Assembly: GCF_007097485.1 (NCBI RefSeq)
Contig: NZ_VKDE01000007.1
Span: 25,402-57,401, forward strand
Direction of reading: 5' to 3'
DNA length: 32,000 nucleotides
Source of the DNA: Carboxylicivirga sp. M1479
GTDB lineage: Bacteria; Bacteroidota; Bacteroidia; Bacteroidales; Marinilabiliaceae
Of the stretch, positions 28,104 through 32,000 are shown in pieces; the first letter of the stretch is position 1; every line of letters begins with the position of its first letter. Under the pieces are notes generated by a model that saw nothing but the letters and a program-made list of their open reading frames with translations, did not search any database and was not told the DNA's origin. The translations under genes were made by a program, and so were the position numbers.

Positions 28104-28826
28104 TTAAAAGCGATATTTATAAAAAAACAATAGGCTCAATATCAATCCTATGGCAATCTTTATTTGCCAATACGGAATAGCTATCCCAATGATGGCAATA
28201 ACAATCACTGCTTTAAGTAGTTTGTTAGATCGTTTATCTGCTTTTGATTTAAACTGTATTAATTTTAATTCGCGGTTTTCCATGTCTAATAAAAATACAC
28301 CATCATTTTCAACCACATAATCATATTCTAGTAGCTGTCGGCGAGTATTTCTATTGCGAGCACTAATGGCCGAGCTGCCACTTTTTACCTCAACAATGTA
28401 TTTCTTACCATTTTTTTTAACAATATAATCAGGCTGTATATCCGCTACCTGAACCTCACCATCTTCTAGGTAGCGATGCTCGTATGTGCTTTGGTAGTCA
28501 ACAATGGTATAACCCTCACTTTTTAGAAAACGTTTGGCGGCAAGTTCTAAATTATTTCCACGCTCAAATCGTTTTTTTACTTTTCGCTCCTTTAAGTATT
28601 GGCTTATTTTATATTTAAGAATTATAAAACTCAGGCTTAAAATAATTAAAGCAAGTAACAAGTAAATAATATGGTTGTGGTTGGAGTAGTAGAAGTCAAA
28701 CATGGAATGGTATTTATATTCGAAACAAAAGTAATAGCATTTGCTCAATTCAATGCGTTTTGCATGCAACAACAGTATAATTCCATTTTTTAATAAGTCC
28801 GAAATCTTCAATTTAATACTCATCAA
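28104..28826 (-). CDS. Hypothetical membrane-anchored protein with a PD-(D/E)xK (NERD/restriction-endonuclease-like) core
   Basis: The more likely start is Met42 at 28703 (MFDFYY...), directly before an N-terminal TM helix. The soluble core has LELAAKRFLKSEGYTIV ... QPDYIVKKNGKKYIVEVKSG (D...E-x-K arrangement). A C-terminal hydrophobic hairpin follows (AVIVIAIIGIAIPYW..GLILSLLFF). Confidence 0.5.
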   Translation of the reverse strand: MMSIKLKISDLLKNGIILLLHAKRIELSKCYYFCFEYKYHSMFDFYYSNHNHIIYLLLALIILSLSFIILKYKISQYLKERKVKKRFERGNNLELAAKRFLKSEGYTIVDYQSTYEHRYLEDGEVQVADIQPDYIVKKNGKKYIVEVKSGSSAISARNRNTRRQLLEYDYVVENDGVFLLDMENRELKLIQFKSKADKRSNKLLKAVIVIAIIGIAIPYWQIKIAIGLILSLLFFYKYRF

Positions 28827-28874
28827 CTATCACTCGAAACAAGTTTTCTAAACATTGAAAGCTAGTGATATTTA

Positions 28875-28923
28875 GGCTAGAGGCCTGGTTTGATAAAACG
28901 TAGCGAGACGCTACGCTTAACGG
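28875..28923. repeat. REP-like double-hairpin terminus (left), inverted copy of 29747..29794
   Basis: AGGCT-AGA-GGCCT hairpin, then an A/T spacer, then CGTAGCG-AGA-CGCTACG (28899..28915, 7-bp stem, contains GTAG). The reverse complement of 29747..29794 aligns along the whole length with a few mismatches. Confidence 0.7.
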
Positions 28924-28928
28924 GGAGA

Positions 28929-29301
28929 GTTGCTGAGGTCAGGAAGCTAACAACTAAAAACAGGCGAATTTTACCCACTTGCAACAGCGTTTCAAGCAAA
29001 TGCCAATAATCCTGAAAGGATAATACACGAATAGCCTTGTACAAAGTGCAAGGTGTTGTATGTGGTTGATGGTCTGCAAGCACAAAGTGCTTGAACTCAA
29101 AATGCGATTACCTTAGAATGGTAAATGTTTTTTGTGCTCAAGCCGCACGGGCTTCTACTTTTGATTCATGAGTGTTTTTTTTTATGTATTCACGATTTAT
29201 GCTACGCTCCAATTACCTACAGTCGTAAAAGTAGACAAAAGGTCCGCTGACGACAGCACTCGATGACCTTTCTAATTTTATTCACTGAATTAAAAGAACT
29301 C
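28929..29301 (+). repeat. Tandem noncoding unit A (373 nt) of a 442-bp-period duplication
   Basis: 28969..29058 is identical to 29411..29500 (90 nt). 29184..29301 is identical to 29630..29747 (118 nt). Contains hairpins at 28930..28945, 29009..29021, 29035..29053, 29077..29093 and 29140..29154. Confidence 0.85.
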
Positions 29302-29370
29302 CCCCGAAAAAAAATCGGGCTCAAACAGCTTTTAATCCTACGCTCATTGCAATTGAAAGGTGCCATCTGC

Positions 29371-29747
29371 GTTACTGAGGTCAGTAAGCTAACAGCCCAA
29401 AACAGACGTGTTTTACCCACTTGCAACAGCGTTTCAAGCAAATGCCAATAATCCTGAAAGGATAATACACGAATAGCCTTGTACAAAGTGCAAGGTGTTG
29501 AATGTAGTTGGTGGTCTGCAAGCACAAAGTGCTTGAACTGAAAATGTGATTACAATGGCTTAGAATGGTATATATTTTTAGTGCTCAAGCCGCAAGCTTC
29601 TACTTTTGATTCATGAGAGTCTTTTTTTTATGTATTCACGATTTATGCTACGCTCCAATTACCTACAGTCGTAAAAGTAGACAAAAGGTCCGCTGACGAC
29701 AGCACTCGATGACCTTTCTAATTTTATTCACTGAATTAAAAGAACTC
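29371..29747 (+). repeat. Tandem noncoding unit B (377 nt)
   Basis: Same as unit A at offset 442. Differences and small indels cluster in 29371..29410 and 29501..29629. Confidence 0.85.
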
Positions 29748-29794
29748 GTTCGGCGTAGCGTCTCGCTGCGTCGCTTTTAAAAAGGCCTCTGGCC
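29747..29794. repeat. REP-like double-hairpin terminus (right)
   Basis: CGTAGCG-TCT-CGCTGCG (29754..29770, one G-T wobble on the + strand), then a T/A spacer, then AGGCC-TCT-GGCCT (29783..29795). Lies 50 nt upstream of the RAYT-like ATG. Confidence 0.7.
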
Positions 29795-29843
29795 TGAATT
29801 AGCATTATCGATTAGAATGTTTATAATATCGTATATTCGGTAT

Positions 29844-30156
29844 ATGAGTACAGGCTATAAAATAGATAATCAAGAAGGTGCCTATTTCATCACTTTACAA
29901 ATAGTAAACTGGGCCGATTTGTTTTCACGTCAGGTTTATCGCGATATTGTAATCAACAACTTACAATATTGCATAGCTAATAAAGGATTGATTGTTTATG
30001 CTTATGTCATTATGAGCAATCATATTCATTTATTGGTGCAAAGTAGTAATGGTCAATTAAGTAATACTATTCGGGATTTTAAGAGCTATACGAGTAAAAA
30101 GTTCATTCAACATATTGAGCAAAATAATGAAAGTCGTTCTGAGTGGTTATTGGGTA
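29844..30156 (+). pseudogene. REP-associated tyrosine transposase (RAYT / IS200-like HUH Y1) gene, 5' fragment interrupted by an IS
   Basis: MSTGYKIDNQEGAYFITLQIVNWADLFSRQVYRDI...AYVIMSNHIHLLV contains the HUH motif (HIH). Homology stops after ...ESRSEWLLG at 30156 and the ORF then reads into IS sequence. ATG 29844 is preferred over the listed 29817. Confidence 0.8.
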
Positions 30157-31801
30157 GGCAATTTCAGAAGTACTACTTAAAAATAAAACTATATGAGGTT
30201 AATCTTAACAGATTAGCCTCTTTGTTTTTCATAATAATTTATTAACTAATAAGTAAGTTCATTCATGGTAAGATTGGACATACCAATCCCATCAAAAGAA
30301 GGTGTTTTCGGTAAAAGGTTTATGCAGCCAGGGATGCTTGATTCCACATTCGCCTGCCTATTTCAAGAGCATTACCAACATGGATGCCCATAAATATCCA
30401 AAGAATTTCAGTGTCCTTTGTCCTGGCTTTAATTCTGTTCAAATAATAATGTTGTTTGTCCTTTCCAAAACTACCTTCAAGTTTGGTTGCCCGTTCTTTT
30501 TTAATCTGTGCAGCCAACTGTTTACGTTGATGTTCATGTTTACCAGCCCGTCCTTTTCTGACAAAGTCAGTTCGAATATTATTAGAGGAGGCAAACTTTC
30601 TGTTAGCATTAGTAGCATAAATAGCATCTGCACCAGCAATCTTTACCTTTGTGTGGGTCAATGATTGAGCTAAGTACACCGATGCTTTAAAATGAGCACC
30701 TTCATTAAAAGCATCAAAACTAAGTTGTTGAATAAAGCTGATTCCATTAATTTGTATTTTATTGACCTTGGCTCCGAACTCTACAGCTTTAGTTTCTTTT
30801 CCCCTGACAATGGGCCGGATATAGCTTTTGGAAAGGCTGACTATTCGGTTCTCTGGTGATTTGCCCGTTGTTAACTTATAGTTTTGTTGCTCCAATACTT
30901 TTTCAATAATTACGTATTGCGTATAATATTTCCCAGGCATTTTAACATTCTGCTGCTTAAGTATGACTGCAAGTTCATCATGGAGTTTTTTTAGTAATTT
31001 CAATACCCCTCTAGTAATAGCAATTCGTTCTTTCTTGGGCTTCCGGCGTTTACGACTATAGTTCCAATAGCGCTGCTTCCATTTATTATACTTGCAGCGA
31101 GGCATGGCTTGTTTGCCATATGAGCAAAGTAGTTTCAACTGGTTTTGACACCAATCAGTTGCCTCCCATAGCAACTTCACATCCGTTGGGAAACGCAAGC
31201 TGCTTTCGTAGCAAGTAGCATCAGTAACTACTTGATCCAACTCTTCCATATAAGGCAGCCAATGCCTAGCTAAACATTTTTGTGCTTTGTCAATATCCAA
31301 CTTTGCTGCCAGCTCGCATCGTATCTGGCTAATGATTTTAAAATTGTTGATTTCTTCTCCAATACCCAGCAACAAACGACAAAATAACTGGTAGTGAATA
31401 TTGGAATTAAACTGCTCCATCAGACGTTTATCTGAACAGCAAGCATAGTTCTTTAGGAACATTAACGCCAGTTTTCCTTGTGGACTAAATGTACAATCTG
31501 GACCCATCTTACTTTCTGATAGACCAAAAGTGTCAGCCAACTCATCCCATGGGATGGCTTGGTAGATTTTGCCAAGTGAGCTGGCAAGGAATTGATTATA
31601 TACAACCTGAAAATTATCTTCAATAGAAAAAAGAGGAAGATGAGCCTGAAATTCCGGAATACTTTGTAATTTTATCACTACTAGAAAAAAAAGTAAACCC
31701 CGATTTATGGCAAAAGTGCCTGTTTTCGGGGGTTTGTTATATCTTTAAGATAGTGATAATTACCTAATTATCAAAACTATATCATCACTTATGGATGCGC
31801 C
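30157..31801 (-). mobile_element. IS5/IS1182-like insertion sequence (1645 bp) inserted in the RAYT gene
   Basis: Flanked by the direct repeat TGGGTA (30151..30156 and 31802..31807). Both ends begin GGC and form a weak imperfect inverted repeat (GGCAATTTCAGAAGT... vs the reverse complement GGCGCATCCATAAGT...). Carries a single DDE transposase gene. Deleting 30157..31807 restores the RAYT reading frame. Confidence 0.8.
30320..31678 (-). CDS. DDE transposase, IS5/IS1182-like (InsH-type N-terminal domain plus DDE_Tnp_1-like core)
   Basis: 452 aa. N-terminal LPLFS...IPWDEL...GPDCTFSPQGKLALMFLKNYACCSDKRLMEQFNSNIHYQLFC is DUF772-like. Candidate catalytic residues lie in VVTDATCYES, AGADAIYATNANR and ERATKLEGSFGKDKQHYYLNRIKAR. 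Confidence 0.85.
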   Translation of the reverse strand: MIKLQSIPEFQAHLPLFSIEDNFQVVYNQFLASSLGKIYQAIPWDELADTFGLSESKMGPDCTFSPQGKLALMFLKNYACCSDKRLMEQFNSNIHYQLFCRLLLGIGEEINNFKIISQIRCELAAKLDIDKAQKCLARHWLPYMEELDQVVTDATCYESSLRFPTDVKLLWEATDWCQNQLKLLCSYGKQAMPRCKYNKWKQRYWNYSRKRRKPKKERIAITRGVLKLLKKLHDELAVILKQQNVKMPGKYYTQYVIIEKVLEQQNYKLTTGKSPENRIVSLSKSYIRPIVRGKETKAVEFGAKVNKIQINGISFIQQLSFDAFNEGAHFKASVYLAQSLTHTKVKIAGADAIYATNANRKFASSNNIRTDFVRKGRAGKHEHQRKQLAAQIKKERATKLEGSFGKDKQHYYLNRIKARTKDTEILWIFMGIHVGNALEIGRRMWNQASLAA

Positions 31802-31807
31802 TGGGTA

Positions 31808-32000
31808 TATTTAAACAAGCTGCTTCAAAGCATAAGCGCAATAGTCATTATCAGGTTTGGACACACGAAAACCATGCTATAAATGTTTATTCAGATAAGT
31901 TTGTAACACAAAAAATCCATTATATACATATGAATCCAGTAAGAGCAGGATTGGTTCGTCAACCTGAAGATTATATTTATTCAAGTGCTTGTAATTATGC
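31808..32000 (+). pseudogene. RAYT gene, 3' fragment (runs off the window end)
   Basis: In-frame continuation IFKQAASKHKRNSHYQVWTHENHAINVYSDKFVTQKIHYIHMNPVRAGLVRQPEDYIYSSACNY. It contains the conserved Y-I-x-x-N-P-V-R-A-G-L-V region that carries the catalytic Tyr. Confidence 0.8.

Follow-up and report, generated by a model that had tools for sequence, protein, structure and literature searches.

Probable remnants of two adjacent REPtrons and an orphan local duplication upstream of an IS-disrupted RAYT gene in Carboxylicivirga sp. M1479

Introduction

A 0.9-kb non-coding stretch in Carboxylicivirga sp. M1479 lies directly upstream of a RAYT (REP-associated tyrosine transposase) gene, is bounded by inverted REPs, and contains a sequence of about 375 nt twice. 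The question raised by this arrangement is whether the stretch is one element, either mobile or transcribed, or a composite left by the history of the locus. A REPtron consists of a RAYT/TnpAREP gene flanked by inverted REPs, as surveyed by Quentin et al. 2018 (PMC6006769) and Di Nocera et al. 2013 (PMC3733652). We analysed the window, by which we mean the whole stretch of 32,000 nucleotides of contig NZ_VKDE01000007.1 (positions 25,402 to 57,401), and carried its numbering onward where a feature ran past its end (extended coordinates). The 0.9-kb stretch was found to represent, with a probability of about 0.6, two REPs of two different adjacent REPtrons together with an orphan local duplication, and not a single element.

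Results

The RAYT gene and its flanking REPs

The RAYT gene lies in two parts, and REPs were located on both sides of it and at the far end of the 0.9-kb stretch:

28864 to 28926, minus strand: REP at the left terminus, probable right-end relic of a REPtron that lay upstream and is otherwise deleted (71.6 bits on the REP covariance model, E 1e-18).
29744 to 29802, plus strand: REP at the right terminus, the RAYT gene's own upstream REP (REP model, 76.4 bits).
29844 to 30156, plus strand: N-terminal part of the RAYT, with the HUH motif NHIH.
30157 to 31801, minus strand: IS5-family insertion sequence splitting the RAYT.
30320 to 31678, minus strand: transposase ORF of the IS.
31802 to 32000, continuing past the window end to about 32068, plus strand: C-terminal part of the RAYT, with the catalytic Tyr motif YIHMNP.
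32060 to 32122 (extended coordinates, about 60 nt beyond the window end), minus strand: third REP, just past the RAYT stop, read past the window end.

The IS is flanked by a 6-bp duplication, TGGGTA, at 30151-30156 and 31802-31807, and removal of the IS and one TGGGTA restores the RAYT frame (compare locus L001). The reconstructed protein of about 189 aa, in which NHIH and YIHMNP are both present, scored 106 bits on NCBIfam REP_Tyr_transpos (cut-off 80) and 32.5 bits on Pfam Y1_Tnp. The gene is now inactivated by the IS, and a look-up of the IS transposase for other host DNA returned the same contig only. The sequence following the RAYT stop reads AGTGATATTTAGGCCAGAGACC...CGTAGCGAGACGCTACGCTTAACGG. 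Since this third REP lies just after the stop, the RAYT gene is flanked normally by inverted REPs, and RAYT and REPs together are a REPtron. The first-pass annotation had the REP pair enclosing the repeats instead of the RAYT, an impression created by the end of the window at 32000. Three REPs were present in the 41.7 kb of host contig read, all of them at this locus.

The REP is a double hairpin of 53-59 nt, with a stem of 9-10 bp and a second stem of 5 bp. In the right REP the large hairpin is GGCGTAGCG-TCT-CGCTGCGTC and the small one AGGCC-TCT-GGCCT, and an equivalent REP was found upstream of the RAYT in L002, L003, L012, L013, L020 and other loci. The core CGTAGCG-TCT-CGCTACG ... AGGCC-TCY-GGCCT is kept beside RAYT genes with no more than 55-65% identity, the loci concerned being labelled Bacteroidales, Cryomorphaceae, Salibacteraceae and Chitinophagaceae. 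A covariance model (R1) returned 140 REPs in 83 sources, usually 30-120 nt ahead of the RAYT start in plus orientation and 50-200 nt past the stop in minus orientation, and this REP(+)/RAYT/REP(-) layout recurs in dozens of Bacteroidota loci. Relatives carried extra REP copies within 5 kb of the RAYT, a distance to be read with many RAYT contigs ending a few hundred nt from the gene.

The REP hairpin fold is maintained by selection. In the REP alignment 97.9% of cells were paired, compared with 30-42% in slid controls, and at four pairs both sides had changed in a compensatory manner, with a covariation score reached by 0/500 shuffles. GTAG was present in 15 of the 16 aligned REPs, inside the large stem and paired with CTAC; one REP has GAAG/CTTC instead, itself a compensatory change. 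A conserved G-T wobble identifies the folding strand, which reads GGCGTAGCG-TCT-CGCTACGTC. The claim that the termini are hairpins of REP type that belong with the neighbouring RAYT was therefore borne out by their conservation beside RAYTs in many Bacteroidota and by the compensatory changes. Similarity to other RAYT loci was confined to the terminal 50 nt or so of the 0.9-kb stretch.

That the two termini are inverted copies, as annotated earlier, also held: 28870-28922 and 29747-29799 are 75% complementary over 53 nt. At both REPs the outer end, with the large hairpin, points toward the repeats, and the small hairpin lies outward. The left REP takes in the final 5 nt (AG TGA) of a RAYT reading frame, and 28864-28926 matches the REP that follows the RAYT stop at 95% identity over 63 nt. 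Being a copy of the downstream REP down to the stop codon, the left REP can be taken as the relic right end of an upstream REPtron. We infer that this second REPtron formerly stood in tandem upstream of the RAYT unit, and the 820 nt separating the two REPs would then be inter-REPtron DNA, external to both REPtrons.

The duplicated units

The DNA between the REPs was divided by alignment as follows:

28929 to 29301, no strand assigned: unit A, duplicated non-coding sequence of 373 nt, with no homologue and no family match.
29302 to 29370, no strand assigned: unique spacer of 69 nt, with CCCGA-A7-TCGGG and no significant similarity to the unit, the REP or the flanks.
29371 to 29747, no strand assigned: unit B, duplicated non-coding sequence of 377 nt.

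The units had been annotated as direct repeats, and the alignment agreed, with 28929-29111 matching 29371-29553 (93%) and 29176-29301 matching 29622-29747 (100%) at an offset of 442-446 nt; column identity over the full alignment was 91%. Their differences were likewise confined, as had been noted, to two segments, with 21 events in 28929-28968 and 29059-29175, and the identical runs measured 90 and 126 nt. This clustering went beyond random placement (largest gap, P about 0.003; both gaps, 0/20000). Tandem Repeats Finder reported no array, the repeat having fewer than two periods and a unique 69-nt spacer, and neither TIRs nor target duplications were seen at the unit ends by repeat comparison and reading of the sequence. 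As a degenerate REP or partial unit the spacer gave alignment scores within those of shuffles, and its CTACGCT, taken earlier for a REP remnant, was at chance level. The REP flanks were not significant as diverged copies of the unit. The G+C content of the unit was 39%, typical of coding DNA in the window, whose other intergenic regions have 28-36%.

The 32-kb window contained no copies of the unit beyond A and B. BLAST did not find it in 79 RAYT loci, the syntenic loci of relatives or the closest RAYT contigs, and blastn with 11-nt words gave no match in plasmids and phages. Three exact unit patterns had no match in viral contigs, nor did an exact 28-nt pattern in metagenome contigs. A REP-based metagenome scan yielded one contig (L087), which was without unit-like DNA. 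The nearest other species by the Cas4-like neighbour (78% identical) had a different gene order and no unit-like DNA. As a separate observation, the gene order around the locus is unlike that of relatives, indicating rearrangements.

A promoter motif in unit A and the folding of the unit

A Bacteroidetes-type promoter motif was identified in unit A:

29131 to 29163, plus strand: TTTG-N21-TACTTTTG, directed toward the RAYT (motif match only).

Full matches to this motif numbered just three, this one included, in 64 kb of both strands. Unit B keeps the -7 box TACTTTTG at 29601-29608 and has lost the -33 TTTG. The -7 motif also occurs at 28726-28733 on the minus strand, just upstream of the shorter start that homologues suggest for the Cas4-like neighbour, so that the motif is plausibly used in Carboxylicivirga sp. 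M1479.

Each unit had been described as packed with perfect hairpins. Hairpins do exist, but their density was only marginally above chance. Counting stems of at least 6 bp, unit A had one hairpin (shuffles average 0.79) and unit B three (P about 0.05), a number also reached by ordinary 377-nt segments of the same DNA. The hairpin TTACTGA-GG-TCAGTAA, attributed to both units, is perfect in unit B but has a G-G mismatch in unit A that arises by changes at both paired positions, and AAAACA-GACG-TGTTTT is perfect in unit B only. The minimum free energy of unit B had z-scores of -0.78 on the plus strand and +0.57 on the minus strand. Rfam gave no match at gathering thresholds, and relaxing the limit to E up to 10 added only noise (mir-60 and CRISPR-DR22); a search for tRNA and tmRNA was negative.

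These observations bear on the possibility that the unit serves as a regulatory leader or as a small non-coding RNA, started from the Bacteroidetes-type promoter near 29170 and/or 29615. The transcript would run through the 126-nt identical tail and either end at the REP(+) hairpin and its T-run or continue as a long structured 5' leader into the RAYT, with GTAC-AAA-GTGC and GCAC-AAA-GTGC, which lie upstream of the promoter at a distance of 41 nt from each other, as operator sites. The full promoter motif, the -7 boxes of both units and the one near the Cas4-like gene would suit such a transcript; the -33 box, however, is lost in precisely the copy nearest the RAYT. The REP(+) hairpin was flagged as terminator-like on the plus strand, and both the clustering of the identical blocks and the raised G+C content speak for the leader, whereas the two head hairpins are not kept between units A and B, folding is no better than in shuffles, and there is neither an Rfam match nor a homologue in which covariation could appear. 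The palindrome motif occurred four times against 1.2 expected but nowhere else among 92 loci; GYACAAAGTGC was rejected as a recurrent operator, being confined to the units. The unit is moreover absent upstream of every other RAYT examined, including those 82-89% identical. On this balance we regard a regulatory leader or small RNA as rather unlikely.

Reading frames and the possibility of a decayed gene

The ORFs in the stretch had been said merely to mirror the duplication; no ORF had a Pfam match. Of 13 stop-free segments reaching 30 aa or more, 9 were searched with Pfam and gave nothing real, the other four being unit-A or unit-B counterparts of those scanned. The 102-aa ORF, used as a query for spurious gene calls on other copies of the unit, returned nothing, and the longest frame, searched against 1.8 billion protein representatives (word-indexed and full HMMER), returned two spurious repetitive matches only.

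The units could alternatively be what remains of a decayed gene, a foreign DNA fragment or another mobile element that once lay between or inside REPtrons and was later duplicated. A G+C content like that of the coding rather than the intergenic DNA of the window would fit such an origin, as would the genes that occupy other REP(-)...REP(+) intervals and the rearrangements implied by the gene order. Against it, no frame had a Pfam match, and the longest had no real homologue among the 1.8 billion representatives. Searches of the stretch by tblastn with RAYT, IS transposase, neighbouring and equivalent-interval proteins found nothing, the DNA was not similar to IS or RAYT, and the substitutions between A and B in the longest frame were mostly amino-acid-changing (judged by eye from ORF translations against the alignment). 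We therefore consider decayed remains unlikely.

RNA partner and mobile-element readings

A more specific proposal would make the unit a lineage-specific regulatory RNA or leader, driven by its promoter through the upstream REP into the RAYT, whose palindromes and REP hairpin control RAYT expression or supply an RNA partner for the HUH enzyme, the duplication being a recent doubling of a control region. This is quite improbable. Were the orphan unit a transcribed RAYT regulator, RNA-level control of a RAYT would be described for the first time, and nothing that we found favours this. A structured RNA tied to the HUH enzyme had been suggested earlier, and the suggestion is not supported, given the lack of an Rfam match and of any homologue, hence of covariation, the non-significant folding energy, the hairpins not maintained between the units, and the missing unit upstream of at least 79 other RAYTs, some of them 82-89% identical. 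A novel structured RNA was likewise not supported, given no homologues, the z-scores above and two hairpins lost in unit A.

Very improbable is a non-autonomous REPIN/BIME/PATE-like element with RAYT-recognised inverted REP ends and the tandem units as cargo: its termini are genuine, inverted RAYT-cognate REPs and REPtron ends are evidently dynamic in the lineage, but the right REP is already the RAYT's own 5' REP, with its partner downstream of the RAYT, the left carries a RAYT stop codon and so derives from a REPtron end, the polarity, with large hairpins inward, is opposite to that of the RAYT-flanking pair and of the doublet at L001 2661-2752, the arms are 824 nt apart compared with tens of nt in REPINs, equivalent intervals in other genomes are filled with normal genes, and searches of the 32-kb window, fetched loci, plasmids, phages and viral contigs, and of metagenome contigs with the 28-nt pattern, did not reveal the cargo again. 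The earlier proposal of a PATE/BIME-like element mobilised by the RAYT is likewise not supported, the left REP being a duplicate of the downstream one. As a REPIN/BIME module the stretch was rejected on its arm spacing and inward large hairpins, which do not agree with a short spacer and with the polarity of the pair on which the RAYT acts. IS200/IS605-type PATEs are multicopy and have differing left and right subterminal hairpins on the same strand without inverted repeats; here one sequence forms both ends as inverted copies, the G-T wobble puts the folding strands opposite, and no other copies were found in the collections searched, so this assignment was rejected too.

Discussion

The twice-present sequence of about 375 nt is most likely leftover duplicated spacer DNA, neither a new mobile element nor an RNA gene. 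A function of the unit itself is improbable; at most it would provide a Bacteroidetes-type promoter from which transcription passes the upstream REP and enters the RAYT, now inactivated by the IS. Under the composite reading that we prefer, a second REPtron would once have stood upstream in tandem, its RAYT being deleted down to the stop codon so that the right-end REP was left over. The unit would then have been doubled locally by replication slippage or unequal exchange. A contribution of RAYT/REP activity to the doubling is possible because similar small duplications occur at REPtron ends in relatives: in L087 the RAYT 3' end and its REP are duplicated in tandem over 117 nt. Gene conversion may later have partially homogenised units A and B, giving the two perfectly identical blocks, although these blocks could instead reflect selection. 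A simple tandem duplication should leave no unique 69-nt spacer between the units, which calls for one more event at the least. The G+C content of the unit is not explained by spacer DNA, and hints at a decayed gene, foreign DNA or constrained sequence.

As it stands the locus matters little, documenting in a Carboxylicivirga genome one more Bacteroidota-type REPtron, its RAYT disrupted by an IS and its tandem partner decayed, together with a local duplication of the DNA between the two. Of modest use is the conserved double-hairpin core with its G-T wobble, which gives a clean substrate prediction for the biochemistry of Bacteroidota RAYTs. The repeated duplication, tandemisation and truncation of REPtron ends in the lineage also bears on the origin of REP singlets and doublets.

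A close precedent is L091 (GCA_019826085.1), a relative with intact tandem REPtrons, which reads RAYT1-REP(-)-290 nt-REP(+)-RAYT2-REP(-); the 290 nt are non-coding, and each RAYT shares 82-85% identity with that of M1479. The window has the same REP order and polarity; unlike L091, its upstream RAYT is deleted to the stop codon and its spacer is 820 nt instead of 290, unrelated, and internally duplicated. L001 carries an internally deleted mini-REPtron 1 kb upstream of a full REPtron, and in other loci the REP(-)...REP(+) intervals upstream of the RAYT hold ordinary genes. The REPtron of E. coli TnpAREP was reportedly described by Nunvar in 2010 and Ton-Hoang in 2012. Like known REPtrons, the system here has a Y1 HUH transposase above the REP_Tyr_transpos cut-off, inverted palindromic repeats bearing GTAG and extra REPs nearby, with hairpins backed by compensatory changes. 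It differs in that the REP is a double hairpin whose GTAG is paired in the large stem (GTAG...CTAC) and is not an unpaired 5' foot, the place of the conserved GT[AG]G in known REPtrons, in that the core is conserved across several Bacteroidota groups, and in the disruption of the RAYT by an IS.

Among Bacteroidetes TnpAREPs, subclass 2.4 has "double-foot" long REPs and subclass 2.6 atypical flanking structures (Quentin et al. 2018, PMC6006769). The M1479 RAYT shares with both the host phylum, a length of about 189 aa, the NH[IV]H motif and flanking secondary structures with further copies beyond the flanking pair, and its GTAG...CTAC arrangement resembles the "double foot" of subclass 2.4; YIHMNP is not an exact fit to either published consensus (YIxNNP or YIH[QN]NP; PMC6006769). 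Further known systems for comparison are REPINs (Bertels and Rainey 2011, PMC3116915), which consist of two inverted REPs, and BIME clusters. Two inverted REPs are present here as well, and a true REPIN-like doublet of the same REP family exists in C. marina (L001 2661-2752), whereas the pair in the window is 824 nt apart, of opposite polarity and drawn from two REPtrons, with an interior not found elsewhere. The system is thus of a known kind, a REPtron, to which an orphan local duplication has been added.

Identity of the repeated unit

The non-coding sequence repeated upstream of the RAYT (REP-associated tyrosine transposase) gene as unit A (28929-29301) and unit B (29371-29747) is probably an orphan, duplicated locally and partly homogenised, a passive reading to which we assign a probability of about 0.6. 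The features described in the first-pass annotation were recovered at their positions by a repeat finder and pairwise alignment. The repeat finder placed direct repeats at 28929-29111/29371-29553 (93%) and 29176-29301/29622-29747 (100%), at an offset of 442-446 nt, and a 53-nt inverted pair with 75% complementarity at 28870-28922/29747-29799. Tandem Repeats Finder reported no array; since fewer than two full periods are present and the 69-nt spacer is unique, the units form a spaced direct repeat and not a head-to-tail array. All 21 differences between the aligned units fell within 28929-28968 and 29059-29175, which leaves uninterrupted identity over 90 and 126 nt. The differences were clustered beyond random in a permutation test (largest gap, P about 0.003; both gaps, 0/20000).

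Two sequence signals were considered:
29131-29163, plus strand: complete Bacteroidetes-type promoter motif TTTG-N21-TACTTTTG (motif match)
29601-29608: repeat of the promoter's -7 box

The G+C content of the unit (39%, versus 28-36% in the window's other intergenic stretches) and its promoter motif are left unexplained if it is a spacer, and both would suit a promoter, leader or sRNA role. The motif is one of three full matches in 64 kb (both strands), its -7 box, TACTTTTG, also precedes the Cas4-like gene (28726-28733, just upstream of the shorter start suggested by homologues), and two related palindromes 41 nt apart, GTAC-AAA-GTGC and GCAC-AAA-GTGC, lie upstream of it. However, the motif is degraded in unit B, the copy nearest the RAYT, nothing similar occurred at any other RAYT locus examined, and the palindromes were found nowhere else; such a role is unlikely. 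A block AATATCGTAT(A/C)TTCG (29826-29846), conserved among Carboxylicivirga-like loci (also C. marina locus L001, 4986-5003, and loci L088 and L090), resembles the -7 box (TAnnTTCG); it ends 4-5 nt upstream of the RAYT ATG, too near to leave a leader.

Descent of the unit from decayed foreign or coding DNA is quite unlikely. The unit was not found in plasmid and phage collections or viral contigs, and Pfam gave no real match to its stop-free stretches of 30 aa or more in six frames (9/13 segments scanned, the remaining four being counterparts in the other unit). Its longest frame had two matches among 1.8 billion proteins, both spurious, and tblastn of local proteins against the 0.9-kb module (28875-29794) gave no signal. 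Among 79 loci encoding RAYT relatives, taken from species-representative genomes, BLASTN and nhmmer matched unit B only through its last ~50 nt, the right terminus, and nothing beyond. The unit was also unmatched on contigs of three of the closest RAYT homologues (82-89% identity) and in loci of the nearest species that have this Cas4-like gene in common with the window but in another gene order, and metagenome contigs lacked an exact match to a 28-nt pattern from it.

The earlier proposal of structured noncoding RNA gained nothing from Rfam, where no family was found. Folding energy was like that of dinucleotide shuffles (z -0.78 and +0.57). The units had been called packed with perfect hairpins; the count was at chance in unit A and marginal in unit B, and two of the listed hairpins are perfect in unit B but not in unit A. 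In one of these, both paired positions have changed to give a G-G mismatch in unit A, the reverse of a compensatory change. Neither the CTACGCT once read as a REP remnant in the spacer nor the resemblance of the spacer to REP or unit exceeded shuffle expectation.

The termini are REPs of the RAYT family

The RAYT gene and the element that splits it were mapped as follows:
29844, plus strand: RAYT gene start
30157-31801: IS5-family insertion sequence, 1645 bp, inside the RAYT gene
30151-30156 and 31802-31807: TGGGTA, 6-bp duplication bordering the IS5-family element

With the insertion removed, the RAYT frame reached 106 bits against NCBIfam REP_Tyr_transpos, whose cut-off is 80, also matched Pfam Y1_Tnp, and encodes the NHIH and YIHMNP motifs; its best matches were in Carboxylicivirga marina and C. 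taeanensis (86-87%). The insertion carries a 452-aa DDE transposase on the minus strand, and its excision in silico restored the frame as ...SEWLLGIFKQAA....

An alignment of 16 copies gave the REP consensus CCGTT-[AC][AG]GCGTAGCG-TCT-CGCTACGT[CT]...AAGGCC-TCY-GGCCTG. In its two hairpins 97.9% of cells were paired and four pairs had changed on both sides, a covariation score reached by 0/500 shuffles; sliding the partner columns lowered pairing to 30-42%. A G-T wobble at one stem position was kept in 14/16 copies, so the folding strand is the one reading GGCGTAGCG.... The covariance model built from this alignment found 140 copies in 83 sources, recurring at RAYT genes, which bears out the annotation of the termini as REP-type hairpins of the adjacent RAYT. 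The plus copy typically ends 30-120 nt before the RAYT start, and the minus copy begins 50-200 nt past the stop. The stem base differs in a compensatory manner between upstream copies (CGTTCGG...GTCG) and downstream ones (CGTTAAG...GTTT).

The usual account of REPs is that they are lineage-specific; the core (alignment A2; window 29744-29802) was nearly invariant beside RAYTs sharing only 55-65% amino-acid identity, at loci labelled Bacteroidales, Cryomorphaceae, Salibacteraceae and Chitinophagaceae. At locus L026 (1-50), a run of a 12-nt tandem repeat, GGTTGTTCGGTT, adjoins a REP and repeats its first bases (TGTTCGG), with several further REP variants, their loop 1 nt longer, within the next 1.3 kb.

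The REP pair does not enclose a cargo

Sequence past the window end was taken from uncultured Carboxylicivirga sp. GCA_947496295.1, reached through the neighbouring histidine kinase; it appears to be the same organism as isolate M1479, since its Cas4-like neighbour is identical to that of M1479 over 199 residues. There AGTGATATTTAGGCCAGAGACCTGGTTTGATAAAACGTAGCGAGACGCTACGCTTAACGG lies directly 3' of the RAYT stop, so the RAYT is flanked by inverted REPs of its own, at 29747-29799 and about 32066-32118. The left terminus (28864-28926) is 95% identical over 63 nt to this downstream REP, a match that takes in the last two bases of the final RAYT codon, the TGA stop and five more bases; the left terminus thus descends from the right-hand end of a REPtron (RAYT gene with flanking inverted REPs). 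The REPs around the RAYT point their large CGTAGCG hairpins outward and their small AGGCC hairpins inward, as do those of a REPIN-like doublet of C. marina (L001 2661-2752), and around units A and B this polarity is reversed. Units A and B accordingly sit beyond the ends of two REPtrons and not within a single element, contrary to the earlier view that an inverted pair encloses a cargo instead of the RAYT; a mobile cargo element is highly improbable. The module occupies the stretch from the relic end of one REPtron to a second, IS-disrupted REPtron with intact ends. The window probably once held two tandem REPtrons, of which the upstream one would have lost all but its terminal few bases and its REP.

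The upstream neighbour (28104-28826, minus strand) encodes a Dna2/Cas4 (DUF83)-like protein that has a hydrophobic segment at its N terminus; its true start is probably near 28703, because homologues have 199 aa. In relatives this gene stands beside DUF6155 in a different arrangement, indicating that the locus was rearranged.

Comparison with known systems

Related arrangements occur in relatives. Locus L091 (GCA_019826085.1) has the tandem order RAYT1-REP(-)-290 nt non-coding-REP(+)-RAYT2-REP(-), with RAYTs 85% and 82% identical to that of the window; its 290-nt interval (within 2-1561) is AT-rich, and each RAYT has REPs. RAYTs are usually described as single-copy; this genome has a third on another contig (L090). 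In C. marina a mini-REPtron with an internal deletion lies 1 kb upstream of the full copy, with a hydrolase-like ORF between. The three variants in C. marina (L001 2661-2752, 3577-3926 and 4919-4958) are a REPIN-like doublet of the window's REP, the mini-REPtron, whose two REPs bracket about 60 codons from the N-terminal part of the RAYT and its final codons, and a full RAYT whose upstream REP lacks the large hairpin. On metagenome contig L087 the RAYT 3' end and downstream REP are duplicated in tandem over 117 nt (reverse strand, last ~265 nt), with GGGG microhomology at the junction by the REP outer end (CTTAACGG|GGG). At other loci, intervals from an upstream REP(-) to the RAYT's REP(+) contain ordinary ORFs of 250-360 aa. 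Many of the contigs carrying a close RAYT homologue measure just 1-2 kb or stop within 100-300 nt of that gene (for example L004, L014, L024, L038, L055; P0076-P0084), which suggests that assembly is interrupted by repetition of the REP arrays beside the gene, or of the whole REPtron.

Together, the termini belong to a known kind of repeat, being REPs from a Bacteroidota REPtron, and the layout of REP and RAYT is the classical REPtron arrangement, known for Bacteroidetes TnpAREP subclasses 2.4 and 2.6 (Quentin et al., PMC6006769) and also described in broader terms (Di Nocera et al., PMC3733652).
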